Source: Acidobacteriota bacterium (GTDB lineage: Bacteria > Acidobacteriota > Polarisedimenticolia > Gp22-AA2). From it: a DNA stretch of 31,623 nt. Shown here piece by piece: positions 1,482-31,623 of this stretch. Each line of letters starts with the position of its first letter. The first letter of the stretch is position 1. Under the pieces are notes generated by a model. The model ran no database searches, was not told the DNA's origin, and was given only the letters and a program-made list of their open reading frames with translations. The translations under genes and the position numbers were made by a program. The DNA lies in assembly GCA_041486695.1 (NCBI GenBank), contig JBGPLZ010000031.1, positions 1 to 31,623 of the forward strand, in the 5' to 3' direction.

Positions 1482-1485
1482 TCCG

Positions 1486-2145
1486 ATGAACCCGGAGCTG
1501 TTCGCCCGCCTCGCGACCCTCGCCTCGAGCCTGGTGCTCCTGAGCGGCCTCGCCATCCTCTGGCGGCACAGCCTGCAGGCATATATCGGTGCCTTCGCGC
1601 GCCAGTCGTTCCTGCTGGTGGTCGCGACCCTGGTCGTCGCCGTGTCCTCGGGTGACCGCCGCCTCTATCTGGTCGCCGCGCTGATCTTCGCCGTCAAGGT
1701 CGTCGTGATCCCGCGTCTTCTGCGCCGGACGCAGGTACATGTCGCCGCCGACCTCGAGATCCACCCGTACGTCAACACGCCGGCCAGCCTGCTGATCGCC
1801 GGAGCCCTCACCCTCCTGGCGTACGTCGTCGCCGAGCCGCTGGTGGCGATCGGGGCGCTGCCGACGCGCGGCGGCATCCCGCTGGCTCTCGCGGTGGTCT
1901 TCCTGGGACTGTTCATCGTGATCAGCCGCCGCAGCGCCCTGACGCAGATCATCGGATTCCTGGTCCTGGAGAACGGCATCGCCCTGCTCGCGGTGCTCGC
2001 GACCTATGGCGTGCCCCTGATCGTCGAGCTCGGAGTCTTTCTCGATGTTCTCCTGGGAGTGCTGGTGATGCAGGTGTTCGTCTACCGCATACGCGAGACG
2101 TTCGACACCATCGACGTCGATCGGCTCCGGGATCTCAAGCATTGA
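1486..2145 (+). CDS. HyfE-like small polytopic membrane subunit (NuoK-related)
   Basis: 219-aa very hydrophobic protein lying between the HyfC-like and HyfF-like genes with 4-nt and 7-nt gaps. Size and position match HyfE. Confidence 0.55.
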   Translation: MNPELFARLATLASSLVLLSGLAILWRHSLQAYIGAFARQSFLLVVATLVVAVSSGDRRLYLVAALIFAVKVVVIPRLLRRTQVHVAADLEIHPYVNTPASLLIAGALTLLAYVVAEPLVAIGALPTRGGIPLALAVVFLGLFIVISRRSALTQIIGFLVLENGIALLAVLATYGVPLIVELGVFLDVLLGVLVMQVFVYRIRETFDTIDVDRLRDLKH

Positions 2146-2152
2146 GGGCGGC

Positions 2153-3619: not shown

Positions 3620-3641
3620 TGTTTGTGGAGCCCCGATCACG

Positions 3642-5282
3642 ATGACCCTCAAGACGGCGCTCGAGAGCCTGGGAGCGCAGGCCTTCGTGGAACGCGGTCG
3701 GACGCTGCGGTGCGCCCTGCCGCGCGCGGCGATCCGATCCGCGGCCGAGATCCTGCTCGGGCGTTTCGAGCTCGATCTCGTCGTGATTCTGGCGAACGAT
3801 CGCCGTGGCGACCGCGCTCTGTTCGAGATCGTCTACCTGTTCTCCGAGTGGCGGGAGAACCGGTTCGTCGAGATCGTCGTCGATGTCCCGCCCGGCGACC
3901 CGACCTTTCCGTCGATCGCCACGCTCTCGTACCCCGCGTCGCGCTACGAACGGGAGATCCGCGACCAGTTCGGGCTGGTCCCCGCGGGCCACCCCGACCC
4001 GCGGCCGCTCGTCCGGCACGGCTTCTGGCCCGAGGACTACCATCCGCTGCGCAAGGACGCGCCGCCGCCGGGCGCCTTCAAGGACGATGGCCGCCCCTTT
4101 CCGTTCCAGCAGGTGGAGGGGGAGGGGATCTTCGAGATCCCGGTCGGTCCGGTCCACGCCGGCGTGATCGAGCCGGGCCATTTCCGTTTCAGCGTCGATG
4201 GCGAGACCATCGTCGACATGAAGGCCCGTCTCTACTACACGCACAAGGGAACCGAGAAGCTGTTCGAAGGGCGGCGCCCGGAGGAGGGGGTCGAGCTGGC
4301 CGAGCGGATCTCCGGCGACAGCTCGGTCGGGCACGCGCTCGCCTATTGCGAAGCGATCGAGGCGCTCGCCGGCGTCGGGGCGCCGCCGCGCGCCGCCGCC
4401 GCGCGCGTCGTGCTGCTCGAGATGGAGAGGATCTACAACCACATCGGCGACTTCGGGGCGATCGCCAACGACACCGGCTTCGCGGTGGCGCAGGCGCACG
4501 CCTTGCGGATCAGGGAGACCTTGCTGCGCCTCAACAAGCGCCTGACCGGGCACCGCCTGCTGCGCGGCCTGCTGACCCCGGGCGGGATCACCCGTGACCT
4601 GCCCGCCGAGCTGGCCGGCGTCGCGGGCGGCGCGGCAACGACGTCCGCCGGCGCGCGCCGCGGCGCGCCCCTGGTCGGCGCGCTGGAATCGATCCTGGCC
4701 GACTTCGAGGAGGTGGTGGCGCTCTGCCTCGACAACAGCATGCTGCGTGATCGGCTGCGCGGCGCCGGGACGCTGACAACCCGGACCGCTCTCGATCATG
4801 GGGTTCTGGGATGCGTCGCGCGCGCCTCGGGGATCGATCGCGACGCGCGCCGCGATCACCCCTGCGCCGCGTATGGCCGGCTGCGCTTCCGCGTGCCGGT
4901 CATGAGCTCGGGCGACGTGGAGGCGCGGGCGCTCATCCGCGTCGAGGAGGTGCGCGAATCGGTGGGCCTGATCCGCCAGGCCTTGACGGATCCGCTGGAG
5001 GGAACGGGGGATGGCGCGGACGCCGGGGAGAGCGAGCTGCGCACCAAGCTCCCGCCGCTCCCGCATCGGCAGAGCGGCTTCGGGCTCGTGGAAGGGTGGC
5101 GCGGCGCCATCCTCCACTGGGTGCTCGTCGACGGCGCCGGCCGGCTCGACCGCGTGAAGGTGAAGGACCCGTCGTTCGTCAACTGGCGGGCCCTGACCTT
5201 CGCGCTCCTCAAGAACATCGTCCCCGACTTCCCGCTCTGCAACAAGAGCTTCAATCTCTCCTACTCGGGGAATGATCTGTAG
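3642..5282 (+). CDS. HycE/HyfG-like large subunit (fused NuoC-NuoD fold) with all four [NiFe] cysteine ligands substituted and no C-terminal maturation tail; Ehr-type
   Basis: The N-terminal NuoC-like domain ('RYEREIRDQFGLVPAGHPDPRPLV...WPEDYHPLRKD') and the NuoD/large-subunit core ('IPVGPVHAGVIEPGHFRFSVDGETIVDMKARLYYTHKGTEKL') align closely to E. coli HycE as I recall it. At the HycE 'RVCGICGFAH' L1 position this protein has 'RISGDSSVGH'. At the C-terminal 'DPCYSCTDR' L2 position it has 'NLSYSGNDL', followed directly by the stop. Confidence 0.85.
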   Translation: MTLKTALESLGAQAFVERGRTLRCALPRAAIRSAAEILLGRFELDLVVILANDRRGDRALFEIVYLFSEWRENRFVEIVVDVPPGDPTFPSIATLSYPASRYEREIRDQFGLVPAGHPDPRPLVRHGFWPEDYHPLRKDAPPPGAFKDDGRPFPFQQVEGEGIFEIPVGPVHAGVIEPGHFRFSVDGETIVDMKARLYYTHKGTEKLFEGRRPEEGVELAERISGDSSVGHALAYCEAIEALAGVGAPPRAAAARVVLLEMERIYNHIGDFGAIANDTGFAVAQAHALRIRETLLRLNKRLTGHRLLRGLLTPGGITRDLPAELAGVAGGAATTSAGARRGAPLVGALESILADFEEVVALCLDNSMLRDRLRGAGTLTTRTALDHGVLGCVARASGIDRDARRDHPCAAYGRLRFRVPVMSSGDVEARALIRVEEVRESVGLIRQALTDPLEGTGDGADAGESELRTKLPPLPHRQSGFGLVEGWRGAILHWVLVDGAGRLDRVKVKDPSFVNWRALTFALLKNIVPDFPLCNKSFNLSYSGNDL

Positions 5283-5286
5283 ACCG

Positions 5287-9647: not shown

Positions 9648-10634
9648 TCACAATGAGTTCGCAGTGTGCCTCGAGACGGCCGGCAGCCGCGCCAGGGCGG
9701 CGATGTGATCGGGGATGGTGCCACAGCAGCCGCCGACCAGCCGGGCTCCTTCATCGATCCGGCCGGAGACCCAGCGGGCGTACCGCTCCGGCTCGTGATG
9801 GTCCGGCAGCCGCCAGCCGGTGACGTCGTCCGGTTCCCCGAGGTGGGCGTAGAGACCGTGCGGCAGCTCGGGTGACAGGGCGACGAAGGCGGGGAAGAGC
9901 GGCTCGAGAACCTCGGGCGTGGCGCAGTTCAGCAGCAGGCCCCGCAGACGGGGGCCGCCTTGATCGCGCAGCCGCGGGATCACCTCGTCGAGCGGCTCGC
10001 CCGAAAGAAGGTGCCGCGGGCCCTTCGGACAGAGGCTCAGAAGGATTTCGAGACCGGTCTCCAGGGCGGCGGCCAGGGCGGCGCGCGCTTCGCGAAGCGA
10101 ATTCATCGTCTCGATCATGATCAGATCGACGCCGAGGCGGGCGAGACATTCCGCCTGCCGGCGATGCTCGGCGAGGCACTCGGTCTCCGACGGTACCAGG
10201 TCGGGCCGGTAGCAGTCCTCGAGCGGCGCGAGACCGCCGGCCACGAGACAGACGCGTCGAGCGTCGAGCGCGGCGGGGCCGCTTCGCGCGGCTTGCAGGC
10301 CGGCCCGGGCTGCGGCGACGGCCCGGCGATTCAGCTCCTGCCAATTCCCGGCGTCGCCGAGATCCCCCTTCGCGAGGCCGCGGCGCGTCGTCCGGAAGGT
10401 GTTGGTCACCAGGATCTCGGCCCCGGCGCGCGCGTAGTCGGCGTGAATCTGGGTGAGGGTCGTAAGCCCCGCATCGGTGAGCAGCGCGTGCGCCGACCAG
10501 AGGGGGAGCGTCGTCGGGATGCCACGCCGCGCCAGCTCGGTCCCGACGGCGCCGTCGAGAAGGACCGGCCGGCCCGGCCGCGCGAGCAGCTGCTCGAGAG
10601 AGATCGTGGTCACGCGGTCATTGTAGCGCCGCAC
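9648..10634 (-). CDS. Homocysteine S-methyltransferase family protein (MmuM/BHMT-like, Pfam S-methyl_trans)
   Basis: N-terminal 'LLDGAVGTEL' and C-terminal 'GGCCGTIPDHI' are hallmark motifs. Length is 328 aa. A GTG start is inferred. Confidence 0.8.
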   Translation of the reverse strand: MRRYNDRVTTISLEQLLARPGRPVLLDGAVGTELARRGIPTTLPLWSAHALLTDAGLTTLTQIHADYARAGAEILVTNTFRTTRRGLAKGDLGDAGNWQELNRRAVAAARAGLQAARSGPAALDARRVCLVAGGLAPLEDCYRPDLVPSETECLAEHRRQAECLARLGVDLIMIETMNSLREARAALAAALETGLEILLSLCPKGPRHLLSGEPLDEVIPRLRDQGGPRLRGLLLNCATPEVLEPLFPAFVALSPELPHGLYAHLGEPDDVTGWRLPDHHEPERYARWVSGRIDEGARLVGGCCGTIPDHIAALARLPAVSRHTANSL

Positions 10635-10646
10635 CGCGCGCCGGGG

Positions 10647-10991
10647 TCAGTCGGCGCGCAGGTCTTCGGGATCGAGGAGGAGATAGGGCTCGCCGAAGGG
10701 GGGGCGGCCATCGCGCGGCGTCAGCCTCAAGCCCCAGTCGCCGCCGTAGACCAGCAGCGAGACGCCGGCTCCGGAATCATCGACCGGAGCGGCCTGCGCC
10801 TCACAGGGGGAGCCGCCGGCGGTGCTCGACCAGCCGGTGACGTCGCACCGGACCGGATCGTCAACCCCGAGCCAGTAGCGCACCGCGCGCACGGGGCGCG
10901 ACTCGCCCGAGGCCTGGAACCGCAGGCCGCACCCCTCGGGGCAGTTGGGGTTCGGATCGATGAAGATGTCGATGAAGCGCGGCCCGGCCAC
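10647..10991 (-). CDS. Hypothetical small protein (114 aa, 4 Cys), apparently co-transcribed between hppA and the methyltransferase
   Basis: Strong GC3 codon bias is consistent with real coding. It has a GTG start. It lies 36 nt downstream of hppA and 12 nt upstream of the methyltransferase start. I recognise no family. Confidence 0.45.
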   Translation of the reverse strand: MAGPRFIDIFIDPNPNCPEGCGLRFQASGESRPVRAVRYWLGVDDPVRCDVTGWSSTAGGSPCEAQAAPVDDSGAGVSLLVYGGDWGLRLTPRDGRPPFGEPYLLLDPEDLRAD

Positions 10992-11027
10992 ATCACCCTT
11001 TCGTCACGACCCGGCCGGGCGAGCCGC

Positions 11028-13193
<2,166 letters not shown>

Positions 13194-13442
13194 GCGGGCT
13201 TCCTCCTCATGAACCGTGAACCTGGCGCGTTAACGTTGATCCTGGTGCAGCGCGCCGGGTGCCTCTCGAAAGGCGGCGTATTCTACAAGAAAAGGGCCCG
13301 CAAACGCGCCCCGGAAGTGCCCCGCGCGCGGCCCTCGCCGATCGATCGTGATCGCGCTCGCCGGGCGGGACAAATCATGGAAGAATAGCGCGCTTTCCCG
13401 CAGGCCTTCACGCCTGAGCGGGTCTCGGAAGGGAGCGCACGG

Positions 13443-17739: not shown

Positions 17740-20700
17740 ATGCAAGAGAGCCGATTTCGGATCCGCCCGCAGTGGCCCGCGGCCCTGCTTCTGGGCGCGG
17801 TCATGTCCATCGCCGGCCTCCCGGCCGGGCCGGCCGCGATCCGGACGGGCACCGCGGCCCCGGCGAACTCCACCAACCATCTGCTGGGGCAGACCAGTCC
17901 CTACCTTCTCGAGCACCTCGAGAACCCGGTTGACTGGTATCCATGGGGGGACGAGGCGCTGGCGCGCGCGCGCGACGAGGACAAGCCGATCTTCCTGTCG
18001 ATCGGTTACTCGGCCTGCCACTGGTGTCACGTCATGGCGCGGGAATCGTTCTCCGATGAGGAGATCGCCCGCCTGCTCAACCAGAGCTTTGTCGCCATCA
18101 AGGTCGATCGCGAGGAGCGGCCCGACCTGGACGCCATCTACATGGATGCGGTGGTGCTGATGACCGGCGGCGGCGGATGGCCGATGTCGGTCTTTCTGAC
18201 GCCCGATCTCGAGCCGTTCCACGGCGGGACCTATCTCCCCAGGGAGCAGTTCCGCGCCCTGCTGACCGGCATCGCCTCGACCTGGAAGGGCAACCGGGAT
18301 CAGGCGCTCGCGGTCGCCCGGCAGGTGCGCGAGAGGCTGGCGCGGCCGCCGACGCCGCCGGGTCCCTCCGGGGCCGTCCCGGCGGGGACGCTTGTCGACG
18401 GGGCGCTGGTCCAGTGGCGGGCCTCCTACGATCCGGTCCACGGAGGCTTCGGGGGCGCGCCGAAGTTCCCGTCCCCGCAGGCGCTCCAGCTGCTTCTCCG
18501 GGCGTCACGCGAGAACCGCTCTGCCCCGGCGCTCGAGATGGTGACGCGCAGCCTGGAAGCGATGGCCAACGGGGGCCTTTACGACCAGCTCGGGGGCGGG
18601 TTCCACCGCTACGCCACCGATGCGGCCTGGAGGGTGCCGCACTTCGAGAAGATGCTCTATGACAATGCCTTGCTCGCCCCGGTCTATCTCGAGGCCTGGC
18701 GGGCGACGGGACGCATCGAGTTCCGGCGGGTCGCGGAGGAGACGCTATCCTGGGTGGCGCGCGAGATGACCGACGCCCGCGGCGGGTTCTGCGCCAGCCT
18801 CGATGCCGACAGCGAGGGGGAGGAGGGCCGCTTCTACCTGTGGACGACGGCGGAGGTTCGGCGGGTCTTGGGCGATCGCGACGCCGCCTTCGCGATCGAC
18901 TACTTCGGCATGAGCGAGCGGGGCGATCTCCCCGGCGGGCGCAACGTCCTGCATGTTCGGTCGGCCCCGCCCGAGTTCGCGCCGGGGCACGGGATGAGCG
19001 ATGAGGCAGTGCGGGCGCGGGTCGTCGACCTCCGCGCCAAGCTGCTGGCGGCACGGAGCTCTCGCCCGCGTCCGCGCCGCGATGACAAGATTCTCACCGC
19101 CTGGAACGGCCTGATGATCTCGGCCTACGCCCGCGCCTACGCTCTCACCGGAGAGGTTCGCTACCGCGAAGCGGCGGCGCGCGCGGCGCGTTTCGCCCAG
19201 GACGCATTGCTCGATCGCGACGGCCGCGTCCTGGCGGTCTTCAGGCCGGGTGGGCAGGTCCCGCTGCCCGGCACCCTCGACGACTCCGCGTTTCTGGCGC
19301 GCGGCCTGCTCGACCTCTACGACGCCACGTCGACGCGCGCCTACCTCGAGGCTGCGAAGCGCATCGTGCATGACGCCGAGCGCTTCCTCGATCGGACTGC
19401 GGGAGGATACTTCTTCACCGCGGAGGATCGGCGACACTTGATCGTCAGGACCAAGAGCTTCGAGGATCAGGCGCTGCCATCGGGGAATGCCGTCCTTCTC
19501 GAATGCCAGACGCGTCTCGCTCGCGCCCTGGGTGACCCGACGCTGTTGCAGCCGGTGCGGCGCACGCTCGAGATCGCCGGTCCTGCGCTCCGCGCCGCGC
19601 CGGCCGGCTCGGCCGCGATGATCCTGGCGGCGTTGCAGCTGGATGCGCCGGAGTCGGCCGCTCCCCGGCCCGATGCGGCCGCGGCGCGCGCCCTCACGAT
19701 CTCGCTGCTCGCGACGCCTGCCCTGGCCGCGAGCCCCGCACCCGCCGCGGCTCCGCAGCCAAAGGGGACCGATGGGACCGGGGGAGGAGACCGGATCGTG
19801 CCCGGCGCCATCGTCGGCCGGGCCAATGCGCAGAAGGTCGTCGAGGCGTCCATCGCCGTCCCGGGCGGGACGGTGCGCCCCGGTCAGGCCGTCACGCTGT
19901 CGTTGCGGCTGGTGATCGCACCGGGGTGGCATATCAATTCGTCGCGTCCAACGCTCGACTACCTGATCGCGACCAGGCTCGCGTTCCCCGATCCCGCCGC
20001 AGTTCGGGTCGAAGAGATCGCCTACCCCGAAGGCTCGATCGTGCTCCTCGAGTTCGCCCAGGAGAAGCTCTCGGTCTATCAGGGGGCGACGACGATCAGG
20101 GCCACCGTCAGCCTGCCGCCGGAAGCGCCGCCGGGCCGGAGCGTGATCGCCGCCAGGCTGGTCTATCAGGCCTGCAGCGACAAGACCTGCCTCGCCCCCG
20201 AGACGATCGAGTTCCGGATCCCGGTCGACGTCGGCGGCGAGCCGGTGATGAGGACGCTGTCCCGCGTCGGTGAAAGCCCTTCGGACATCGAGGCTGCGGG
20301 GGCGCCGGCCGGAGGCAACGAAGGCGGCGCGCCGCCGACCGGCCGTGGCGGAGGGCTCGAGTCGCTCCTGGGACAGGGGCAGGGGGGCGAGGGGATCCAG
20401 GCGCTCCTCGATCGCCGCGGCCTCCTCGTGCTCCTCAGTCTGGTGTTCCTGGCCGGGCTGGCCCTGAACCTGACCCCCTGCGTCTACCCGATGATGCCGA
20501 TCACGATTGGCTTCTTCGCCAATCAGTCGCTCGGCAGCTGGGGGCGTCGGATCGGCCTGCCGGCCCTCTACGTCCTTGGGATGGCGGTGACCTACTCGAT
20601 TCTCGGCCTGGTGGCGGGACTGACCGGGACGCTGTTCGGCTCAACCCTGCAAAGTCCCCTCATCACCGGGGGGCTGGTGCTGATCTTCGTCATCATGGCG

Positions 20701-21594
20701 CTGTCGATGTTCGGATGGTTCGAGATCCAGATGCCGCGCTTCCTGACCCGCCTCAGCGGCGGCCGGCAGGGGACCCTCGGCGCCTTTCTGATGGGCCTGA
20801 CGATGGGGATCGCTGCGGCGCCCTGCATCGGCCCGTTCATCGTGCCGCTGCTGGCCTTCGTCGGGGTCTCGGGGAAGCCGATCCTGGGCTTCTGGCTGTT
20901 TTTCGTGATGGCGATCGGGATGGGGGTGCCGAACCTCTTTCTGGGTGCCTTCTCCGGCGCCATGGCGGCGCTGCCGCGCTCGGGCATCTGGTTGATCTAC
21001 GCCAAGAAGGTAATGGGCGTGGCCCTCCTGGCCGTGGCGCTCTATTTCCTGCAGCCGTTCCTGAAGGATCGCTGGCTCGGCGTCATCGCGCTCGGCTTCG
21101 CCGCCCTCTCGGGGCTCTATCTCGGTTTCCTGGATCGCACCCGGGTTGCCTCCGGTTGGTTCCGGCCGGTGAAAATCGGCATCGGGCTTCTGGTCCTCTC
21201 CGCCGGGGCGTGGGTGGCCGGGCCGCTTCTCCGCGCCCGGCCGGAGGTCGACTGGCGTCCTTACTCGCCAGAGATCCTCGAAGCGGCCAGGGCGGCGGGG
21301 CGGCCGGTGATCATCGACTTCGCCGCGGCCTGGTGCCTGCCGTGCAGAGAGCTCGAGCGCTTCACCTTCACCGATGCCCGCGTGCTCGTGGAGGCGGAGC
21401 GCTTCGCGCTTCTCAAGGCCGATCTCACTTCGTTCGAAGCGGCGCCGGTGCGCGAGATCCGGGCGCGCTTCGAGGTCGTGGGAGTACCGACCATCATCTT
21501 CATCGACGGCAAGGGAATCGAGAAAAGAGATCTCAGGGTGTACGGTTTCGAGGCGGCCGCCCGGTTCGTCGAGCGCATGCGGCAGGTCCGGTAG
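17740..21594 (+). CDS. Fusion protein: signal peptide + DUF255/YyaL thioredoxin-domain protein (SPATA20-like, with (alpha/alpha)6-barrel region) + complete thiol:disulfide interchange protein DsbD (alpha, TM beta and thioredoxin-like gamma domains)
   Basis: The DUF255 signature '[47 protein letters not shown]' is present. The DsbD-alpha-like block is '[22 protein letters not shown]...[18 protein letters not shown]'. The DsbD-beta Cys sites are '[18 protein letters not shown]' and '[17 protein letters not shown]'. The gamma domain has '[15 protein letters not shown]'. Total length is 1284 aa, roughly YyaL (~680) plus DsbD (~600). Confidence 0.8.
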
Positions 21595-21603
21595 AACGGC
21601 GGT

Positions 21604-21640
21604 GAACGCGACCCATGCGAATACTCGGACCGGCTCCTAG
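21604..21640 (+). repeat. Copy of a ~37-nt repeat family (gaacgcgacccATGcgaatactcggaccggctcCTAG) overlapping the thrC start codon
   Basis: 34/37 identical to the reverse complement of 23815..23851, and ~33/35 to 24058..24092. Confidence 0.6.
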
Positions 21641-22808
21641 CTGCCTCGACCGGCTCGAATGTTCGCTCTGCACAGCCGTTCGGCCGTTCGGCCCCGAGCC
21701 GGCGGGTCTGTGCACGTGCGGCGCGCCTCTCCTGGCGCGCTACCGGCTGGACGAGGTCCGGAAGGCGCTGCACCGGGAGGATCTCCGCGGGCGGATCGCC
21801 AGCCTATGGCGCTACGCCGAGATCCTCCCGGGGGTGACCCCGGTCACTCTCGGGGAAGGGTTCACGCCGCTCCTGCCGGCGAGCCGATTGGGCCGCGAGC
21901 TCGGCCTCCACGGACTCCTGATCAAGGACGAGTCGGTCAACCCGACCGGCTCGTTCAAGGCGCGCGGAATGTCGGTGGCCGTGTCGGTGGCGGCGGCCCA
22001 GGGGGTGAGGGTCGCGGCCACGCCTTCCGCCGGGAACGCCGGCTCGGCCCTGGCGGCCTATGGCGCGCGCGCCGGGCTCCAAGTGCAGCTCTTCCTGCCG
22101 GAGACGACCCCGCGGCCGTTCGTCCTCGAGGCGCGGCGGCTGGGCGCGCGGGTGCGGCTCGTGCCCGGCTCGATCGCCGACGCGGGGCGGGTGATGCGGG
22201 AGAGCCTGGGTCAGGGCGGGTGGTTCGACTTCGCGACCCTGCGTGAGCCGTTCCGGATCGAGGGAAAGAAGACGATGGGGTACGAGCTGGCCGAGCAATG
22301 CGGCTTCGAGCTTCCCGAGGTCGTCATCTATCCCACCGGCGGGGGAACGGGACTCATCGGCATGTGGAAGGCGTTCGACGAGATGGAAGCGCTGGGGTGG
22401 GTCGGCGGTCGCCGGCCACGGATGATCGTGGTCCAGGCGGAGGGTTGCGCGCCGATCGTGAGGGCCTTCGAGCGCGGCGCCGATCGCGCCCTGCCCTGGC
22501 CGAACCCCGAGACGGCCGCCTCGGGGCTCAGGGTTCCCGGAAGCCTGGGGGACTTCCTGATCCTGAAGGCGGTCCGGGAGAGCGGCGGAACCGCGCTCGC
22601 GGTCGCCGACCGTGAGATGATGGAGGGGTCCGCGCGGCTGGCGCGCCATGAGGGGATCGATGCCTGCCCGGAGGGGGGAGCGACGCTCGCGGCGCTGCTG
22701 CACCTGAAGCAGGAGGGGAAGGTGGGGGCCGACGAGAGGATCGTCCTCTTTAACACCGGCACCGGCCTGAAGTACTTTGATGCAGGACCGGGCATCGAGC
22801 CCGGCTAA
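21615..22808 (+). CDS. thrC: Threonine synthase (PLP-dependent, type with N-terminal Cys4 zinc-ribbon)
   Basis: 'LECSLC...LCTCGAPL' is followed by 'LIKDESVNPTGSFKARGMSVAVSVA' (PLP-lysine motif) and 'IYPTGGGTGLIG'. The start codon lies inside a repeat copy (see findings). Confidence 0.85.
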   Translation: MRILGPAPSCLDRLECSLCTAVRPFGPEPAGLCTCGAPLLARYRLDEVRKALHREDLRGRIASLWRYAEILPGVTPVTLGEGFTPLLPASRLGRELGLHGLLIKDESVNPTGSFKARGMSVAVSVAAAQGVRVAATPSAGNAGSALAAYGARAGLQVQLFLPETTPRPFVLEARRLGARVRLVPGSIADAGRVMRESLGQGGWFDFATLREPFRIEGKKTMGYELAEQCGFELPEVVIYPTGGGTGLIGMWKAFDEMEALGWVGGRRPRMIVVQAEGCAPIVRAFERGADRALPWPNPETAASGLRVPGSLGDFLILKAVRESGGTALAVADREMMEGSARLARHEGIDACPEGGATLAALLHLKQEGKVGADERIVLFNTGTGLKYFDAGPGIEPG

Positions 22809-22820
22809 AAGGAGGGGCTG

Positions 22821-23225
22821 ATGCGTCACCGAAGATTGACGGTCGGAGGAATCGCTGGCGCCGTTCTCGCCGGAGCGCTCCTGGCGGCCTCGCCGGCACC
22901 GAAGCCGACTCCCGCGCCCTCTCCGACCCCGGCGCCTGCTCCGACTCCGGCGCCCTCTCCGACTCCGGCGTCCTCCCCCTCGCCCTCTTCCGGACCGGGA
23001 GCGGCGCCCGAGCCCGCGGCGTCCCCCGCACCGGCACCACCGCTGCCGCGCATCATACGGACCGTCTGCACCGACCACATCTGCGGCAACTGCGATGGCA
23101 AGTGCCAAAAGAACGGCGGCCACGTGGCGGTCGACAAGAAAGGCCATTGCGCCTGCACTCCGACCGAGGGGAGCGCCCTCGACCAGGCCACGCGCCAGGC
23201 CTACGAGAAGAACCAGCCAAAGTGA
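22821..23225 (+). CDS. Small secreted protein: signal peptide, Pro/Thr/Ala/Ser-rich repeat linker, C-terminal Cys6/His3 mini-domain
   Basis: A strong SD (AAGGAGG) lies 7 nt upstream. The N-terminus 'MRHRRLTVGGIAGAVLAGALLAAS' is signal-like. '(PTPAPS)n' is encoded by an 18-bp tandem repeat. The C-terminus 'CTDHICGNCDGKCQKNGGHVAVDKKGHCAC' is Cys/His-rich. It ends with a TGA that overlaps the GTG of folE. Confidence 0.6.
   Translation: MRHRRLTVGGIAGAVLAGALLAASPAPKPTPAPSPTPAPAPTPAPSPTPASSPSPSSGPGAAPEPAASPAPAPPLPRIIRTVCTDHICGNCDGKCQKNGGHVAVDKKGHCACTPTEGSALDQATRQAYEKNQPK
22905..22976 (+). repeat. 4 x 18-bp tandem repeat (ccgactccggcgccctct-like) encoding PTPAPS units inside the small secreted protein gene
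   Basis: Four consecutive 18-nt units with 1 to 3 mismatches each are visible directly in the sequence. Confidence 0.7.
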
Positions 23226-23818: not shown

Positions 23819-24092
23819 GAGCCTGTCCGAGTAATAGCATGGGTCGCGTTCGCGGCGCCGCGGGGTCGGCCGCGAGGCGCCGCGACGACCGCGATGTGAG
23901 TCATCGCGGAGGAGCGGCAACGATGCGGACGGTCCCGCGCCGCCACGAACCCGCAGGGCACGTGGGGATTGCGGCCCCATGCTTCGTTGATCGTCGTCAA
24001 CGATGCGACCACATCGTATCCTCCTCGCGCCTCGCCTGGGACTCGCAAGCCCCACGTGCGCGGCCCATGCTATTACTCGGACAGGCTCCTAG
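23815..24092. repeat. 278-bp element bounded by ~35-bp near-perfect terminal inverted repeats (candidate MITE, invertible segment or structured RNA locus) between convergent folE and accC
   Basis: The left arm (23815..23849, ctaggagcctgtccgagtaatagcatgggtcgcgt) and the reverse complement of the right arm (24058..24092) are identical at 33/35 positions. The CTAG at each end contains the TAG stops of folE (23816-18) and of accC on the minus strand (24089-91). The internal 208 bp has several short perfect hairpins, for example ccgcgatg-tgagt-catcgcgg. Confidence 0.55.
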
Positions 24093-24111
24093 GAGCCGGT
24101 CCGAATATTCG
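24089..24111. repeat. Partial inverted copy of the same repeat (ctaggagccggtccgaatattcg), abutting the right IR to form a long palindrome centred on CCTAGG; it encodes the last residues of AccC
   Basis: Its reverse complement 'cgaatattcggaccggctcctag' matches the thrC-start copy at 22/23 positions. Confidence 0.55.
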
Positions 24112-25642
24112 ACCGACGGCTGTGCATCAGGGCGCGCCGCCCGGCGAGGAGCCAGGGGCTGGCGACCGCACCAGGCTCGGAGGCCGCACTGGGCATGGAG
24201 ACCGACGCCCGCGTGCTCTCCTCGCTCGCCACGATCGCCGCGGCGATCACCGCCTCGTCCAGATCGGGGCCCGGCTCGAGCAGCGGCGCGATCAGCCGCG
24301 GCAACTCCCGATCGACGTACCCGACGTCGATCGCCCCATCCCGGAAGCCGGGATCGTTCATCACCTCGCGGTGGAACGGGATCGTCGTTTCGATTCCGGC
24401 CACCACGAACTCGTCGAGCGCGCGACGCATCCTGGCGATCGCCTGGCCGCGCGTCCGACCCCAGGCGACCAGCTTGGCGATCAGCGCGTCGTAGTACAGC
24501 GAGATCTCGTCCCCCGGGAGGAGGGCGGTGTCGACCCTGATCCCCGGCCCCGCCGGCAGGCGCAGCTCGGCGATCCGGCCGGGGCAGGGCCGGAAGTCGT
24601 GAGCCGGATCCTCGGCCAGGATGCGGCACTCGATGGCCCAGCCGCGCCGGCGGATGTTCTCCTGCCGGATCGACAGCCGCTTGCCGCGGGCGATGTCGAT
24701 CTGCTCGCGCACCAGGTCGTAGCCGGTCGTCATCTCGGTGACCGGATGCTCAACCTGGAGCCGCGCGTTGACCTCCATGAAATAGGGCTGGCCCGTGTCG
24801 CCCAGAAGGAACTCGACCGTGCCGGCGCTGAAGTATCCGGAGGCGCGCACCGCCTCGAGCGCCAGCGCTCCCATGCGCTCGCGCGTCGCCGGCGTGACCG
24901 CGGTCGAAGGGGACTCCTCGATCAATTTCTGGTGGCGGCGCTGCAGCGAACATTCCCGCTCCCCCAGATGGACCGCCTGGCCGTGGCGGTCCGCCAGCAC
25001 CTGGATCTCGACATGCCGCACCTTCTCGAGATACTTCTCGGCGTAGATGCCGTCGTCGCCGAAGGAGGCCTTGGCTTCGGACCGAGCGGCGCGCAGCGCC
25101 GCCGCGAGCTCCCCCGGGGCGTGGACGACGCGCATCCCCTTGCCGCCGCCACCGGCGGCCGCCTTGAGCAGGATCGGATAGCCAGCCTGGTCCGCGAAAG
25201 CCAGGATCGCGGCCGTGCCTGCGGGCCCGGTGGCCCGCTCGGTCAGCCCGGGGATCACGGGCACGCCGCGCGCCGCCATCCGGCGCCGCGCCTCAACCTT
25301 GTCTCCCATCGCCCGCATGGCCGCCGGCGGCGGGCCGATGAAGATCAGGCCCTGCGCTTCGCAGGCTTCGGCGAACGCCGGGTTCTCGGAGAGGAAGCCG
25401 TAACCCGGATGGACCGCGTCGGCCCTCATGGCACGGGCCGCCTTCAGGATCGCCTCGATGTCGAGGTAGGACGAAGCCGGCGGCGGCGGACCGATCGGCC
25501 GGGCGTCGTCGGCGAGGCGGATCGGCAGCGAGTCACGGTCGGCCTCGGAAAAAACCATCAGCGGCGTGAGGCCGGCGTCGCGGCAGGCGCGCAGGACCCG
25601 CAGGGCGATCTCACCGCGATTGGCGATCAGGATCCGCCGCAT
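24089..25642 (-). CDS. accC: Biotin carboxylase subunit of acetyl/propionyl-CoA carboxylase, with a ~60-aa Ala/Ser-rich C-terminal extension and no biotinyl (BCCP) domain
   Basis: 'MRRILIANRGEIALRVLRACR...', an ATP-grasp domain and the 'biotin carboxylase C' domain are present. The start is preceded by GAGGAG. The C-terminal tail 'AVIAAAIVASEESTRASVSMPSAASEPGAVASP...SNIRTGS' runs into the repeat. Confidence 0.85.
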   Translation of the reverse strand: MRRILIANRGEIALRVLRACRDAGLTPLMVFSEADRDSLPIRLADDARPIGPPPPASSYLDIEAILKAARAMRADAVHPGYGFLSENPAFAEACEAQGLIFIGPPPAAMRAMGDKVEARRRMAARGVPVIPGLTERATGPAGTAAILAFADQAGYPILLKAAAGGGGKGMRVVHAPGELAAALRAARSEAKASFGDDGIYAEKYLEKVRHVEIQVLADRHGQAVHLGERECSLQRRHQKLIEESPSTAVTPATRERMGALALEAVRASGYFSAGTVEFLLGDTGQPYFMEVNARLQVEHPVTEMTTGYDLVREQIDIARGKRLSIRQENIRRRGWAIECRILAEDPAHDFRPCPGRIAELRLPAGPGIRVDTALLPGDEISLYYDALIAKLVAWGRTRGQAIARMRRALDEFVVAGIETTIPFHREVMNDPGFRDGAIDVGYVDRELPRLIAPLLEPGPDLDEAVIAAAIVASEESTRASVSMPSAASEPGAVASPWLLAGRRALMHSRRSNIRTGS

Positions 25643-25700
25643 GGCATCTCCTCGGGCTGGCCGGCTGCGGGGGGCGGCCGCCGAACAGCCGCACCGGCTC

Positions 25701-27248
25701 CTAGAGCGGGATGTTCCCGTGCTTCTTGGGAGGATTGGTGTCCTTCTTGGTCCTCAGAAGCCGCAGGGCCTTGATCACCTTGCCGCGCGTCTGGCGCGGC
25801 TCGATCACTTCGTCGACGTAGCCGCGCTCGGCGGCGACGTACGGGTTGGCGAACTTCTCCCGGAACTCCTCGACCTTCTGGCGGCGGAGCGCCTCCCCGT
25901 CCCCGGCCGCCGCCAGCTCGCGTCGGTAAAGGACGCTCACGGCCCCCTCCGGACCCATGACGGCGATCTCGGCGGTCGGCCAGGCGAAGTTGAAGTCGGT
26001 GCGGATGTGCTTCGAGCCCATGACGCAATAGGCGCCGCCGTACGACTTCCGGGTGATGACCGTGATCTTCGGCACGGTCGCCTCGGCGAAGGCGTACAGG
26101 AGCTTGGCGCCATGCTTGATGATGCCGCGGTGCTCCTGGTCGGTGCCGGGCAGGAACCCCGGCACGTCCTCGAAGATCACCAGCGGCACGTTGAAGGCGT
26201 CGCAGAAGCGGACGAAGCGCGCTCCCTTGAGCGAGGCGTCGATGTCGAGCGTGCCGGCCAGCACGGCCGGCTGGTTGGCGACGATGCCGACGACACCGCC
26301 ATCCATGCGGCCGAGGCCGACCACCAGGTTCTTGGCGTAGTGCTCGTGGACCTCGAGGAAGGCCCCTTCGTCGAGCACGCTGCGCACGACATCCTTGATG
26401 TCGTACGGCTTGTTCGGTTCCTCCGGGATCAGCCGATCGAGCCGCTCGTCCTCACGGTCCGGGTCGTCGACGGGATCGCGGCGGGGCGGGTCTTCCATGT
26501 TGTTCGAGGGCAGATAGGACAGAAGCTCGCGGATGAGACCGAGTGCGGCGCGGTCGTCGGCCGCCGCGAAGTGGGCCACGCCACTCACCGTGGCGTGGGT
26601 CATGGCGCCGCCCAGCTCTTCCTTGCTCACCTCTTCATGGGTCACCGACTTGAGGACGTCGGGGCCCGTGATGAACATGTAGGAGGTCCCCTGCACCATG
26701 ATGTTGAAGTCGGTGATCGCCGGCGAGTAGACCGCTCCGCCGGCGCAGGGGCCCATGATCGCCGAGATCTGCGGAATGACGCCCGAGGCGAGGGTGTTGC
26801 GCAGGAAGATGTCGGCGTAGCCGCCGAGGGAAACGACGCCCTCCTGGATGCGCGCCCCTCCGGAGTCGTTGAGGCCGATGACCGGCGCGCCGACCTTCAT
26901 CGCCAGATCCATGATCTTGCAGATCTTGGCGGCGTGGGTCTCGCTCAAGGAACCGCCGAAGACGGTGAAGTCCTGGGCGAAGATGAAGACCGGCCGGTCG
27001 TCGATCGTGCCGTGTCCAGTGATCACCCCGTCGCCCGGGATCCGCTGCGACTCCATCCCGAAGTCGTTCGAACGGTGGACCACAAAGCGGTCGAGCTCCT
27101 GGAAGGACCCGGGGTCGAGCAGGAGCTCGACCCGCTCGCGGGCCGGCAGCTTTCCCTCGGCCTTCTGGCGCTGCAGACGCTCCGCTCCGCCGCCGGCCTC
27201 GGCCTCCCGGTTCCGGCGCCGCAACTCCTCGAGCTGATCGTTGGCCAA
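25701..27248 (-). CDS. Acyl-CoA carboxylase carboxyltransferase (beta) subunit, propionyl-CoA carboxylase beta / methylmalonyl-CoA carboxyltransferase family
   Basis: '...[11 protein letters not shown]...' together with the two crotonase-fold carboxyltransferase halves ('[19 protein letters not shown]', '[10 protein letters not shown]') identify it. Only a TTG start is available in frame after the upstream stop, so the start is uncertain. Confidence 0.8.
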
Positions 27249-27293
27249 GCTAGAAACCTGTCCGGGTATCGGGACGGGTCACGGTGGGGCGCC
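27249..27293. repeat. Degenerate copy of the repeat family filling the tal-pccB intergenic spacer
   Basis: 'gctagaaacctgtccgggtatcgggacgggtcacggtggggcgcc' aligns with 'gctaggagcctgtccgagtaatagcatgggtcgcgttcgcggcgcc' (23814..23859) at about 32/45 positions. Confidence 0.4.
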
Positions 27294-27956
27294 TCAGGCT
27301 TTCCGCGAGTTCTGCGGCAACTTCTCCCAATCGGCCAGAAACTTCTTCAGGCCGAGGTCGGTGAGAGGATGCTTCAGCAGGCTCTCGAGGACTGAAAACG
27401 GCATCGTGGCGATGTCGGCGCCGATGGTGGCGGCGTCGATGACGTGGAGCGGGTTGCGGATGCTGGCGGCCAGGATCTCGCACTTGAAGTCGTAGTTGTC
27501 GAAGATGGACCGGATCTGGCGCACCAGGTCCATGCCGACGTGGCCGATGTCGTCGAGCCGGCCGAGAAACGGGCTGACGTAGGAGGCGCCCGCCTTCGCC
27601 GCCAGCAGCGCCTGCGGGGCGGAGAAGATGAGGGTGGTGTTGATCCGGATCCCCTCCGATGACAGGGTCCTGATGGCGCGCAGCCCCTCGCGGATGAAGG
27701 GGATCTTGACGACCACGTTCTTGGCGACCTTCGCCAGATCGCGCCCCTCCCGGATCATCTCGTCGGTCGTCACGCTGACCACCTCGGCGCTCACCGGGCC
27801 GGGCGCGACGACGGCGCAGATCTCCTTGAGCGCCTCGATGAAGTCCCGGCCCTCCTTCGAGACCAGGCTCGGGTTGGTGGTGACGCCGTCGAGGATCCCC
27901 CAGGAGTGGGCCTCCCGAATCTCCTTGATGTTGGCCGTATCGAGATAGATTTTCAT
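27294..27956 (-). CDS. Transaldolase / fructose-6-phosphate aldolase family protein (short ~220-aa type)
   Basis: '[13 protein letters not shown]...GVTTNPSL...VVKIP...' carries the conserved Schiff-base Lys region. Length and motifs match FSA/TalC-type enzymes. Confidence 0.85.
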
Positions 27957-27971: not shown

Positions 27972-30545
27972 CTAGTGATCCTTGCCGTTGCCGCCGCCGG
28001 GAGCCGGCTCCAGGGTCCCCCCGGACGGTCCGGCTCCCTCGCCCGGCTCGCTCTCCTCGCCCTGGATGCCGCCCGACGGCGACCCTCCCGGCCCCGCGAC
28101 TTCGTCGCCTTCGGCCACCGGCGCCACGGCCACGACCTTGTCGTCGTCGTCGAGGTGGATCAGGCGCACGCCCTGCGTCGGCCGCCCGAGAAGGGAGATG
28201 TCCTTGACGTTCGTCCGGATGATCTTGCCGAAAGCGGTGATCACCATCACCTGGTCGTCGGTCTCCACCTCCATCGCCTGGACCACCGGGCCGTTCTTGT
28301 CGGTGACCTTGAAGTTGATGATGCCGCTGCCGCCCCGGCCCTGCAGACGATACTCGGGGATCTCGGTCCTTTTGGCATACCCTTTCTCGCTGACCGTCAG
28401 GATGGTGCTGTCCTTGGCGGCCTTCAGGACGTCCATCTCGACGATGACGTCTCCTTCGGCCAGGCGCATGCCGATCACGCCGCGGGCGCCGCGACCCATC
28501 GCCCGGACGTCGTCCTCGGCGAAGCGGATCGACTGCCCCTGGGCGGTCGCCATGAAGATCTCCTGCTTGCCGTCGGTCAGCTTGACCGACAGCAGCTCGT
28601 CCCCTTCATCCACCCCCGTGCCGATAATGCCACCGGCACGCGGGTTGCCATAAGCCGACAGCGCGGTCTTCTTGATGATCCCCTTGCGAGTGCAGAAGAC
28701 CACGTGCTGATCGTCCCTGAACTCCTTGGTCGCGACCAGGGCGGCGACCTTCTCGCCGGTCTGGAGCTCGACAAAGTTGACGATGTTCTTCCCCTTGCCG
28801 GCGGCGCCGATCTGCGGGATCTCGTGGACCTTCAGCCAGTGCACCCGGCCCCGGGTGGTGAAGATCAGGATCGACGCGTGGGTGGAGGCGACGAACAGGT
28901 GCTCGACGAAATCCTCCTCCCGCGTGGTCATGCCGATCTTTCCCTTGCCTCCCCGCCGCTGGCTGCGGTAGAGCGACAGCGGATTGCGCTTCATGTAGCC
29001 GGCGTGGGAGACGGTGATGACCATCTCCTCCTCGGCGATCATGTCCTCGACCGAGATCTCCCCTGCCTGCGGGACGATCTCGGTGCGCCGCGCATCGGGG
29101 TGGTTCTTGCGGATCTCCTTGAGCTCTTCGACGATCATGCTGAACACCAGCCGCTCGTTGGCCAGGATCTCCTTGAGCCGGGCGATCTGCTTCAGCGTCT
29201 CGGTGTACTCGTCGACGATCTTCTGGCGCTCCAGGCCGGTCAGGCGCTGCAGCCGCATGTCGAGGATCGCCTGCGCCTGGATGTCGGAGAGCTTGAAGCG
29301 CAGGCGCATCGCCTGGCGCGCGTCGTCAGGCGTCTTGGCCGATTTGATCAGGGCGATCATCTCGTCGAGATTGTCGAGGGCGATCTTGAGCCCCTCGAGG
29401 ATGTGGGCCCGCTCCTCGGCCCGCGCCAGCTCGAACGCGGTGCGCCTCGTCATCACCTCGCGCCGATGATCGATGAAGTGCCCGATCATCTGCTTGAGGT
29501 TGAGCACCTGGGGGCGGTTGTTGACGATCGCCAGGAAGATCGCCCCGAAGCTGTCCTGCATCTGGGTGTGCTTGTAGAGGTTGTTCAGGATCACCTTGGG
29601 CACCGCGTCGCGGCGCAGATCGAGAACCACGCGGATGCCATCGCGGTCGGACTCGTCGCGGATGTCGGTGATGCCGTCGATCTTCTTTTGATTGACCAGG
29701 CCGGCGATCTGCTCTATGAGCCGCGTCTTGTTGACCTGGTAAGGAATTTCGGTGATGACGATCTTGTCCTTGCCCCGCTTGCCGCCTTCCTCGATGGTCG
29801 CCCGGGCGCGCATGGTGATGATGCCGCGGCCGGTCCGGTAGGCCTGCAGGAACCCCTCGCGCCCGAGGATGTACCCTGACGTCGGGAAGTCGGGCCCCTT
29901 GACGTGCTGCAACAGGGCGTCCATGGTGATCTCGGGGTCCTCGATCTGCGCGATGACGGCGTTCACCACCTCGGTCATGTTGTGCGGCGGGATGTTCGTC
30001 GCCATGCCGACGGCGATGCCGGAGGAGCCGTTGACCAGGAGGTTCGGGAAGCGGCTCGGCAGCACCAGCGGCTCGAGCTGCTGGCCATCGTAGTTCGGGC
30101 CGTAATCAACCGTGTCCTTCTCGATGTCGGCCAGCATCTCGTGCGCCAGCCGGGCCATCCGGATTTCGGTGTAGCGCATGGCGGCCGCAGCGTCCCCGTC
30201 GATCGACCCGAAGTTCCCCTGCCCGTCCACCAGCGGGTAGCGCATGGAAAAATCCTGCGCCATGCGCACGATCGTGTCGTAGATGGCGGTGTCACCGTGC
30301 GGGTGGTACTTCCCCATGACGTCTCCGACGATGCGCGCGGCCTTCTTGTACGGCTTGTCATGGTCGTTCCCCGCCTCGTGCATGGCAAACAGGACGCGGC
30401 GGTGGACCGGCTTGAAGCCGTCGCGGATGTCGGGCAGGGCCCTGCCGATGATCACGCTCATGGCGTAATCGAGGTAGGACCGCCGCATCTCGTCTTCGAT
30501 GTCGACTCGGGAGATCTCGCCTGGTGTCTGGGTTGTCTCGCTCAT
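27972..30545 (-). CDS. gyrA: DNA gyrase subunit A
   Basis: '[31 protein letters not shown]' carries the active-site Tyr region, followed by the GyrA beta-pinwheel C-terminal domain and a Gly/Glu/Pro-rich acidic tail. Confidence 0.9.
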
Positions 30546-30579
30546 GCGCCTGTAGGGTGGGGCCCGCGGTCCACGGTCA

Positions 30580-31623
30580 TCAGATGTCGAGGTTGCGGAC
30601 CATGAGAGCGTTCTCTTCGATGAAGCGCCGGCGTGGCTCGACGGTGTCGCCCATGAGGACGGTGAAGATGGCGTCCGCCTCGACGGCGTCGGCGATGTTG
30701 ACCTGCACCAGGCTGCGGGTCTCTGGGTTCATGGTGGTCTCCCAGAGCTGCCCGGGGTTCATCTCGCCGAGCCCCTTGTAGCGCTGGATCGCGATCCCCT
30801 TCTTCCCCTCGTCCATGAGGTAGCGCAGCAGTTCCAGACGGCCCCCGACGCTCACCTCGTGGCCGTCCTCGCAGACGAGGAAGGGAGGCTGCTTCAGATC
30901 CTTGAGATCGCGGTCGAGGCTGGCGAGCGTCCGGTATTCAATCGACGACACGAGATCCCACCCGACCGTGGCCCCGGCATGCCCGCGCGCCTGAGAGGCG
31001 ACGTCAAAGGTGTAGCGCCCGTGCTCCTCGTCCCGCGTCAGCTCCCCGGTCTTGAAGCCGGCTTTCTCGACCGCTTCGCGGACGCCCTCGAGGAGCTCGG
31101 GGGTTTCGAACACGCGCATGTCTTGCATCTGCTGGTCCAGCAGCACCTCGATGAGCGCCGGGTCGAACCCGCGCTTCTTCAGGAGATCGTGGTGCATCTG
31201 ATAGCGCACCAGGCGATCGAGCGCAGCGCGGAGCTCGTTCCCCTCCAGCCGCGATTCACGCGCCGGCACCCTGACCGCGCGCTCCAGGGCGGCGCTGCTC
31301 ATCAGGAAGCGATTCAGCTCGTCGTCGTTCGCCAGGTAGGTCTCGACGCGTCCTTTCTTGACCTTGTAGAGCGGCGGCTGCGCGATGTACAGGTGGCCGC
31401 GCTCGACCACCTGTTTCATCTGCCGGTAGAAGAAGGTCAGAAGCAGCGTCCGGATGTGGGATCCGTCCACGTCAGCGTCGGTCATGATGATGATGCGATG
31501 GTACCGCAGCCGGGTGTGATCGTAATCGTCCTCGCCGATGCCCGTGCCGAGCGCGGTGATGACCGTGCGAATCTCCTGGCTCCCAAGCATCTTGTCGAAG
31601 CGGGCTTTCTCGACGTTCAGGAT
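30580..31623 (-). CDS. gyrB: DNA gyrase subunit B, C-terminal (TOPRIM/GyrB-tail) part; the 5' portion lies beyond the window end
   Basis: '[25 protein letters not shown]' (TOPRIM), '[17 protein letters not shown]' and the C-terminal '...[24 protein letters not shown]' identify it. The ORF remains open to position 31623. Confidence 0.9.

Follow-up and report, generated by a model that had tools for sequence, protein, structure and literature searches.

A YyaL/DUF255 module inserted into the resident DsbD of an uncultured acidobacterial lineage suggests a redox partner for exported YyaL proteins

Introduction

The DUF255/YyaL/SPATA20 proteins form a large family that ranges from archaea to mammals, in which SPATA20/SSP411 has been linked to male fertility. 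A structure has been solved (7TKV) and, to our knowledge, no biochemical activity is known for the family. A gene of an Acidobacteriota bacterium (assembly GCA_041486695.1) raises the question of what a YyaL protein could do when attached to a membrane electron conduit. In the 31,623-nucleotide stretch of contig JBGPLZ010000031.1 that was analysed here (hereafter the window), a single open reading frame (ORF) joins a YyaL module to DsbD's alpha, beta and gamma domains. From this fusion it would appear that YyaL modules, where exported, are connected to the DsbD pathway by an alpha-type domain.

Our literature search found no paper connecting DUF255/YyaL to DsbD, none giving a function for bacterial YyaL, and nothing on the class of two-domain proteins (YyaL plus a DsbD_N-type domain) described below. 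A cytoplasmic YyaL adjoins trxB in Leptospirillum, where its role was called "unclear" (PMC7084401). In addition, PF03190 (DUF255) and PF02696 (SelO/YdiU) are among the strongest negative phyletic couplings, which marks them as possible functional alternatives; both families were described as unstudied in bacteria, and DUF255 was proposed to be a redox protein (PMC6822775). The negative coupling with SelO/YdiU may be an independent hint that YyaL takes part in redox homeostasis.

Results and discussion

One reading frame encodes a YyaL module and DsbD

The gene is one uninterrupted frame of 1284 codons with 0 internal stops, and a purine-rich AAGGG lies a few bases 5' of its ATG (coordinates are given in Table 1). 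The original prediction, made from the letters of the sequence, had read it as a single 1284-amino-acid (aa) polypeptide, and this was borne out by the continuity of the frame and by 47 full-length relatives of the same architecture. Its list of parts, namely a signal peptide, a DUF255 domain with CHWC, a helical region, CSDKTC, two cysteines in the beta domain and WCLPC, was recovered in full by Pfam, hydropathy and an AlphaFold2 model. The four Pfam domains placed on the protein lie above their gathering scores, and the presence of DUF255 in the N-terminal half is supported by PF03190 at 254 bits. The beta domain matched the CcdA structure 5VKV (E = 1.6e-9), and the gamma domain matched solved DsbD gamma domains (E ~ 1e-16 to 5e-17).

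Hydropathy gave a signal-like N-terminal segment and eight hydrophobic segments, i.e., a DsbD-like topology with eight transmembrane (TM) segments. The positive-inside rule is obeyed, with K+R = 9 in the predicted cytoplasmic loops vs 3 in the internal periplasmic loops, and YyaL, alpha and gamma are accordingly predicted to share the periplasmic side of the membrane. The protein has 10 cysteines in total, of which eight form the putative relay (C93/C96, C812/C817, C914, C1029 and C1199/C1202) and the other two are C351 and C589.

The YyaL module lacks its canonical C-terminal domain

Residues 1-837 were modelled with AlphaFold2 from 62 aligned sequences (mean predicted local distance difference test, pLDDT, 85.6; pTM 0.78). 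In the model a thioredoxin (Trx) domain is followed by an all-helical barrel (~215-635), then by a disordered linker (652-689) and lastly by a confident all-beta domain (691-831). The top Foldseek match was 7TKV (E = 4e-43, TMt 0.83, 601 aligned columns), which is Bab1_2064, an uncharacterised Thioredox_DsbH-domain protein of Brucella abortus, followed by AGE-family sugar 2-epimerases/isomerases and GH76 mannanases. The fusion shares with the YyaL/DUF255/SPATA20 family the Trx motif C-H-W-C, the barrel fold and all of the family signature motifs.

The module had also been called full-length, and in this respect the original prediction did not hold. By sequence, the fusion aligns to residues 7-574 only of the 668-residue 7TKV, and residues 575-668 are without a counterpart. 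These belong to the canonical YyaL C-terminal domain of ~95 residues, which ends in [FY]-x-C-x4-C-x-x-P and was found in 7TKV and in 65 of 80 YyaL genes from representative-genome loci. In the fusion this tail is missing, and the linker and DsbD alpha occupy its place, so that the protein differs from canonical members by carrying DsbD alpha-beta-gamma where they carry the tail. It also differs in being exported, whereas canonical members are mostly without a signal peptide (59/65 canonical-tail genes; 72/95 canonical representatives).

The shared C-x4-C-x-x-P led us to consider homology between the canonical tail and DsbD alpha. This was rejected, since hhalign of 70 tails vs 108 alpha domains gave a probability of 2.9% over 27 columns; the likeness appears to be a local motif resemblance only, with homology undetectable. 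A different result was obtained for the two Trx-type domains of the polypeptide. The YyaL Trx domain and gamma align with their CxxC motifs in register (27% identity, E = 3e-9), and the same was seen between relatives. By this homology the YyaL Trx domain is of the fold type with which DsbD alpha exchanges disulfides and electrons.

The fusion is conserved, and rare

Relatives were searched among 5.8 billion protein clusters, in which the identical protein is P0001. The search returned 47 further full-length fusion proteins (1224-1297 aa, 39-79% identity) with the same domain set, on separate contigs of NCBI, JGI and ENA assemblies; those with names belong mostly to Candidatus Polarisedimenticolia or Acidobacteria. 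Across the 48 fusions, 8/8 relay cysteines are invariant at a mean column identity of 58%, and C351 and C589 are unconserved. CHWC is present in 47/48 (CYWC in the remaining one), as is a hydrophobic N-terminal 12-mer (47/48). The signature residues of the YyaL barrel are invariant or nearly so, from which we take the module to be functional; H301, E303, D355 and E362 are among the invariant positions of the protein. The invariant relay cysteines together with the kept YyaL motifs indicate that the fusion is real and that both halves are under purifying selection. Automated annotation of relatives already reads "YyaL (SSP411 family)/cytochrome c biogenesis protein CcdA".

It could be argued that sequencing, assembly or gene calling has joined two neighbouring genes, given a metagenome-type contig with a G+C content of ~68%, at which long ORFs are common. 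These general features were the sole reason to raise the concern, and no positive evidence for it was found. The 47 full-length relatives, spread over three sources of assemblies and down to 39% identity, keep one continuous frame, and a separate YyaL gene upstream of DsbD was seen in none of the loci examined. Such an artefact is effectively refuted, and we consider it extremely improbable.

Counting the fusions requires some care. PF03190 also matches weakly the gamma domain of ordinary DsbD (e.g., residues 500-563 of P0326; P0229), and as a result plain DsbDs and fragments are labelled 'DUF255 domain-containing protein'; PF03190 alone is therefore unusable for counting YyaL-DsbD fusions. 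In an exhaustive HMMER comparison of residues 85-1284 with representatives clustered at 50% identity (1.84 billion), one full-length fusion representative (P0006) and one fragment were among the best 150 matches, to which the listing extends. No full fusion was found among the YyaL matches listed from the representative-genome contig scan.

YyaL was probably inserted into a resident DsbD

The fusion gene is the positional ortholog of the ordinary DsbD of its lineage, which is probably the class Candidatus Polarisedimenticolia of the Acidobacteriota. The closest unfused relatives of its beta-gamma half are ordinary alpha-beta-gamma DsbDs of 616-647 aa, and plain DsbD genes lie at the same chromosomal position with no YyaL gene upstream. 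On the 3' side, fused and plain DsbD genes are followed by threonine synthase (thrC), often a small Cys-rich ORF, GTP cyclohydrolase I, SpoIID/SPOR, PatA_N, IPPT and Hfq. The position of thrC is the same for fused and unfused DsbD in loci L085, L086 and L088-L094. In the fusion type thrC is directly downstream, sometimes overlapping the stop codon. As a functional partner it was rejected, since the thrC-GTP cyclohydrolase I-SpoIID block also follows unfused DsbDs and represents lineage synteny.

The inserted segment can be delimited in two presence/absence pairs with identical flanking genes: fusion P0013 (L094) vs plain P0132 (L092), and fusion P0024 (L093) vs plain P0130 (L088). Flanks within the pairs are 76-89% identical (blastn), the start codon region is common to both members, and where the fusion has ~2.1 kb the plain gene has a corresponding 119-137 nt. 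Between the partners of a pair, the plain and the fusion N-terminal signal peptides align gap-free, and alpha identity between the fusion and unfused syntenic DsbDs is 53-58%. We also considered whether the Ala/Pro-rich linker might be a relic DsbD signal peptide left by read-through from an upstream YyaL gene. This was rejected because the plain signal peptides match the fusion N-terminus instead; the homology of the start codon region in the DNA and the low-complexity, gapped nature of the linker match speak against it as well.

In the beta-gamma tree, plain DsbDs confirmed by context nest within the fusion clade (P0130 is 90% identical to P0024, P0132 85% to P0013), with some other short entries probably being contig-end fragments. 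A neighbour-joining tree of YyaL parts groups the 45 main-clade sequences as monophyletic, and pairwise identities of YyaL and beta-gamma correlate with r = 0.87 (1035 pairs of main-clade fusions). Given this co-divergence of the two halves, the most economical reading would be a single ancestral insertion of YyaL between the DsbD signal peptide and alpha, followed by at least 3-4 in-frame deletions, the event counts being approximate as the trees carry no bootstrap support.

A second fusion clade (P0049/P0050) is ~40% identical and occupies a locus of 58% G+C with other neighbours. Its members fall with other two-domain YyaL proteins in the YyaL and alpha comparisons and stand apart from the main clade in beta-gamma too. 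This suggests that they were probably fused independently and that the same architecture has arisen twice.

A class of YyaL proteins with an alpha-type domain alone

In many proteins of ~750-850 aa the YyaL core carries a DsbD_N-type domain and nothing further, e.g., P0059 (Ca. Polarisedimenticolia) and P0081 and P0120 (contigs of 5.6-6.5 Mb). We aligned 61 of them, each a 90%-identity cluster, with the query (62 sequences, alignment A2). The four cysteines of CxWC and the alpha C-x4-C are invariant in all 61, as they are in the fusion, from which these proteins differ by the absence of membrane and gamma domains and, in a subset, of a signal peptide. In the YyaL tree they are sister to the main fusion clade. 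Their alpha has a median identity of 34% to the fusion alpha, compared with the 53-58% of resident DsbD alpha.

The alpha-type domain is strongly enriched in exported YyaL, yet it is not limited to exported forms. Counted on 50%-identity representatives with clear calls only, a signal-like N-terminus was found in 22/27 alpha-type vs 19/91 canonical-tail YyaL (odds ratio 16.7, p = 1.6e-8). Across the family, 242 of 255 collected YyaL sequences with CxxC also hold a downstream C-x4-C-x-x-P, in either a canonical tail or an alpha domain, and so does one eukaryotic homolog. The number of relatives lacking CxxC in the collected set was 0, so that a coupled loss of the Cys pairs has no cases to compare.

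A possible electron relay from DsbD to YyaL

In the known mechanism of DsbD, alpha exchanges disulfides with the Trx-fold gamma domain (PMC3322552, PMC2631958). If the fusion works in the same manner, electrons from cytoplasmic thioredoxin would cross the membrane via the beta Cys pair C914/C1029, reach gamma C1199/C1202 next and from there alpha C812/C817, the order known from canonical DsbD. Alpha, on its flexible linker of 38 residues, would then reduce C93/C96, the CHWC disulfide that the YyaL Trx domain carries on the same chain. The reduced Trx domain may in turn serve a reaction of the adjoining barrel, which shares its fold with sugar epimerases, isomerases and six-hairpin glycosidases, and alpha presumably still serves ordinary DsbD clients.

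This chain (thioredoxin to beta, gamma, alpha, the YyaL CHWC and the barrel reaction) is the best-supported model, and one towards which we lean with modest confidence. It is favoured by the combination of a periplasmic site, invariant cysteines, a flexible linker and an alpha domain in the place of the Cys-hairpin domain. DsbD is the one evident supplier of thiol reductant in the periplasm, where topology places the YyaL module. A disordered linker between barrel and alpha, with both flanking domains confidently predicted, would suit the proposed contact, and the pairing of alpha with YyaL recurs independently in the 61 two-domain proteins, with four Cys kept and with export enrichment. Architecture, topology, Cys invariance, the homology of YyaL Trx and gamma, and the evolutionary history are direct results of the analysis.

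Several points weigh against the relay model. Every electron-transfer step in it, the direction of flow, the contact of alpha with YyaL and the role of the barrel are what we infer from these results. At least 3-4 losses of the YyaL module have left DsbD in place at the same locus, so that DsbD function is independent of the module and the coupling could be loose. The architecture is rare, confined to a narrow uncultured lineage plus the small second clade. YyaL proteins that bear alpha and have no signal peptide amount to 5/28 representatives and, depending on the criterion, ~22-30/61 two-domain clusters; the latter start with short hydrophilic N-termini like those of cytoplasmic YyaL. The YyaL-alpha partnership is thus not strictly DsbD-dependent, and without a signal peptide the alpha-type domain would not be rechargeable by a periplasmic gamma. 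The gene neighbourhood adds to these points. The original prediction had looked to conserved YyaL/DsbD adjacency as a possible sign of a functional link, and such adjacency was absent: tblastn with beta, gamma and alpha found no CcdA/DsbD-beta homolog within ~6 kb of YyaL in 84 loci (1.01 Mb) and no Trx match outside YyaL, with alpha matches confined to the YyaL genes of eight two-domain loci. Likewise, among the called neighbours of five two-domain genes inspected (P0081, P0059, P0120 and P0066 among them) there was no beta-gamma gene, and the five had no conserved neighbours in common.

Another explanation would be that DsbD acts just as its unfused orthologs do, with YyaL merely anchored or co-expressed and no dedicated transfer from alpha; CHWC would then be handled by other periplasmic partners or form a structural or regulatory disulfide. 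The position of the fusion at a housekeeping DsbD locus is consistent with this, as are the relatives that share its flanks, are 85-90% identical in beta-gamma and do without the module, and the rarity of the fusion along with the lack of adjacency in the 84 loci. What it leaves unexplained is that YyaL has lost its C-terminal Cys-hairpin domain exactly where alpha sits, and that alpha-type domains with invariant Cys recur on YyaL; nor does it account for the apparent double origin of the fusion architecture. Divergence of the YyaL and beta-gamma halves has, in addition, run at similar rates (r = 0.87). Taken together, we regard a merely tethered YyaL as unlikely. The logic of the relay could also be reversed, such that the YyaL Trx domain is a second gamma that exchanges with alpha in either direction, and alpha or the barrel meets the final substrate. 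Here alpha would be YyaL's own C-terminal relay domain too, and the fusion would merge two alpha-containing proteins via one alpha. Such an arrangement fits the gamma-like YyaL Trx, the sister position of the two-domain proteins to the main fusion clade in the YyaL tree, and the downstream C-x4-C-x-x-P in 242/255 CxxC YyaL sequences and the eukaryotic homolog; two-domain proteins without a signal peptide, moreover, would have to work without DsbD beta-gamma. However, a periplasmic YyaL Trx has no electron source but DsbD, and the net flow would have to start at beta-gamma. As the canonical tail and alpha are not detectably homologous (hhalign 2.9%), the common C-x4-C-x-x-P may also be coincidence or convergence, and we hold this second alternative to be improbable.

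With regard to the claims for function, YyaL had been proposed to be a periplasmic reductant-dependent enzyme or a DsbD client. Topology, invariant Cys and the gamma-like Trx are in line with this proposal, and the rarity and dispensability of the module and the lack of adjacency are not. The further suggestion of a functional clue for the whole family stands for exported YyaL, in the form of a hint at a partner; for the mostly cytoplasmic or eukaryotic members it adds little beyond a CxxC Trx.

The general pairing of the YyaL CxWC with a C-terminal C-x4-C-x-x-P hairpin is, in our view, the most interesting lead. It would extend the relay to YyaL/DUF255/SPATA20 proteins generally, as two-site thiol relays with a gamma-like C-x-W-C Trx and a C-terminal Cys-x4-Cys-x-x-Pro hairpin across the barrel. 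The hairpin domain would be interchangeable, being a canonical small domain, a DsbD_N-type immunoglobulin-like domain or the alpha of a whole DsbD. We put this forward as a tentative and rather doubtful generalisation. If it is true, the fusion shares one alpha between two systems and plugs the relay into a membrane electron supply, and it would reveal the partner of the family CxxC and how its redox state is reset.

Comparison with DsbD-type systems

Compared with the DsbD of Proteobacteria, the fusion keeps all three domains and their order, each domain with one Cys pair, along with the PC motifs in TM1 and TM4, a signal peptide, periplasmic alpha and gamma, and a C-terminal CxxC Trx. It differs by ~650 extra residues (YyaL Trx, barrel and linker) between signal peptide and alpha, and by an alpha pair of C-x4-C, where that of E. 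coli DsbD is C-x5-C. The NCBIfam DsbD model PRK00293 matched residues 741-1283 from model position 59 at 285.5 bits, under its cut-off of 330, and the fusion is therefore a member of the superfamily outside this curated subfamily model.

The superfamily comprises DsbD, CcdA and ScsB and evolves by domain fusion with varied periplasmic modules, including ScsB with an enlarged alpha and alpha-less forms (PMC3322552). TsoB is a rhodanese/DsbD fusion-like selenoprotein with U-x4-U (PMC13188914). The best NCBIfam model for the beta-gamma half was that of TsoB (NF045694), at 434.5 bits vs a cut-off of 805 and over model positions 176-571 only; the fusion has no rhodanese match in Pfam and no selenocysteine. 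ScsB, TsoB and a DsbD-Redoxin protein from our searches (P0326, 789 aa, alpha-beta-gamma DsbD with a C-terminal AhpC/TSA-Redoxin domain) resemble it in combining a DsbD conduit with an extra periplasmic redox or client-type domain. Unlike these, it adds a two-domain, enzyme-like unit of ~600 residues N-terminal to a retained alpha, rather than replacing alpha or appending a small Trx-fold domain at the C-terminus. Modules known on the DsbD conduit, so far small Trx-fold or rhodanese domains, thereby come to include a unit of this size.

Other unusual architectures were a DsbD with two DsbD_N domains (P0250, 766 aa), a YyaL fused to an aldo/keto reductase domain (P0296, 1171 aa), and two proteins of ~1110-1130 aa (P0351, P0387) with C-terminal extensions of ~450 residues and no Pfam match in them.

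For the YyaL family, the fusion and the YyaL-alpha class point to a specific redox partner of its CxxC, a DsbD_N-type Cys hairpin. In the fusion, electron transfer to YyaL could be studied within one polypeptide chain, and the natural presence/absence pairs lend themselves to comparisons of what the module adds. The fusion is confined to a narrow uncultured lineage, and it bears on cytoplasmic and eukaryotic members in an indirect way.

Feature map and surroundings in the window

Table 1. Positions of the fusion gene, its parts and the adjacent synteny marker in the window.
Feature	Position	Strand	Basis or remark
Complete fusion ORF	17740..21594	+	1284 aa plus stop; signal peptide-YyaL (Trx and barrel)-linker-DsbD alpha-beta-gamma
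Signal-peptide-like segment, aa 1-~33	17740..17838	+	Hydropathy; pLDDT < 50
DUF255/Thioredox_DsbH Trx-like domain, aa 45-200	17872..18339	+	PF03190, aa 45-200, 254 bits vs cut-off 27; PDB 3IRA, E = 5e-55
CHWC redox motif, C93/C96	18016..18027	+	Both Cys kept in all 48 fusions and all 62 A2 sequences
(alpha/alpha)6 six-hairpin barrel, aa ~215-635	18382..19644	+	AlphaFold2, all-helical, pLDDT mostly > 90; Foldseek
Ala/Pro-rich disordered linker, aa 652-689 (38 residues)	19693..19806	+	pLDDT < 50; composition
DsbD alpha, aa 691-831, all-beta	19810..20232	+	DsbD_N (PF11412), aa 712-825, 43 bits vs cut-off 25; pLDDT > 90
Alpha redox pair C812-SDKT-C817 (C-x4-C, then L-A-P)	20173..20190	+	Invariant in 48 fusions and 62 A2 sequences
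Gly-rich linker between alpha and membrane domain, aa 832-890	20233..20409	+	Composition
DsbD beta, 8 TM, aa 896-1163; C914 (TM1, LTPCVYP), C1029 (TM4, AAPCIGP)	20425..21228	+	DsbD_TM (PF02683), aa 896-1107, 154 bits
DsbD gamma Trx domain, aa 1171-1284; WCLPC with C1199/C1202 at nt 21331-21345	21250..21591	+	Thioredoxin_7, aa 1171-1256, 92 bits
Threonine synthase gene (thrC)	21615..22808	+	NF006050, 532 bits; synteny marker, outside the fusion system

The surroundings of the fusion in the window are housekeeping genes, with no sign of a mobile element or of an operon dedicated to redox functions. Upstream, 216..5282 (+) encodes membrane subunits of the NADH dehydrogenase/hydrogenase type, including a fused 30 kDa + 49 kDa (NuoC/D-like) protein at 3642..5282, followed by a TPR/phosphodiesterase protein at 5272..8286 that is syntenic in L088 too. 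At the other end, 27972..31590 (-) carries transaldolase, gyrA and part of gyrB. Three long ORFs on the plus strand have no Pfam family: 9960..13388 (1142 aa, TTG start), 23969..25774 and 25566..27395. The second of these is probably a high-GC shadow ORF, as a biotin carboxylase is encoded on the opposite strand at 24089..25642 (-).

Between thrC and GTP cyclohydrolase I, two genes 3' of fused and unfused DsbD alike, lies a conserved small exported protein (22821..23225, +) with no Pfam or NCBIfam family. In this same invariable position it also occurs at L088:10052-10354, L090:10148-10441, L091:8063-8356, L092:9815-10210 and L094:11637-12056. Its layout is a signal peptide, a Pro/Ala-rich spacer and a module of ~55 residues, VVCTDHICGNCDGKCxKxxGHVA[IV]DKKGHCACTPTEG, with six invariant Cys and two invariant His. 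It may be a mini-protein that binds metal or is rich in disulfides, and it is conceivable that DsbD has it as a client.

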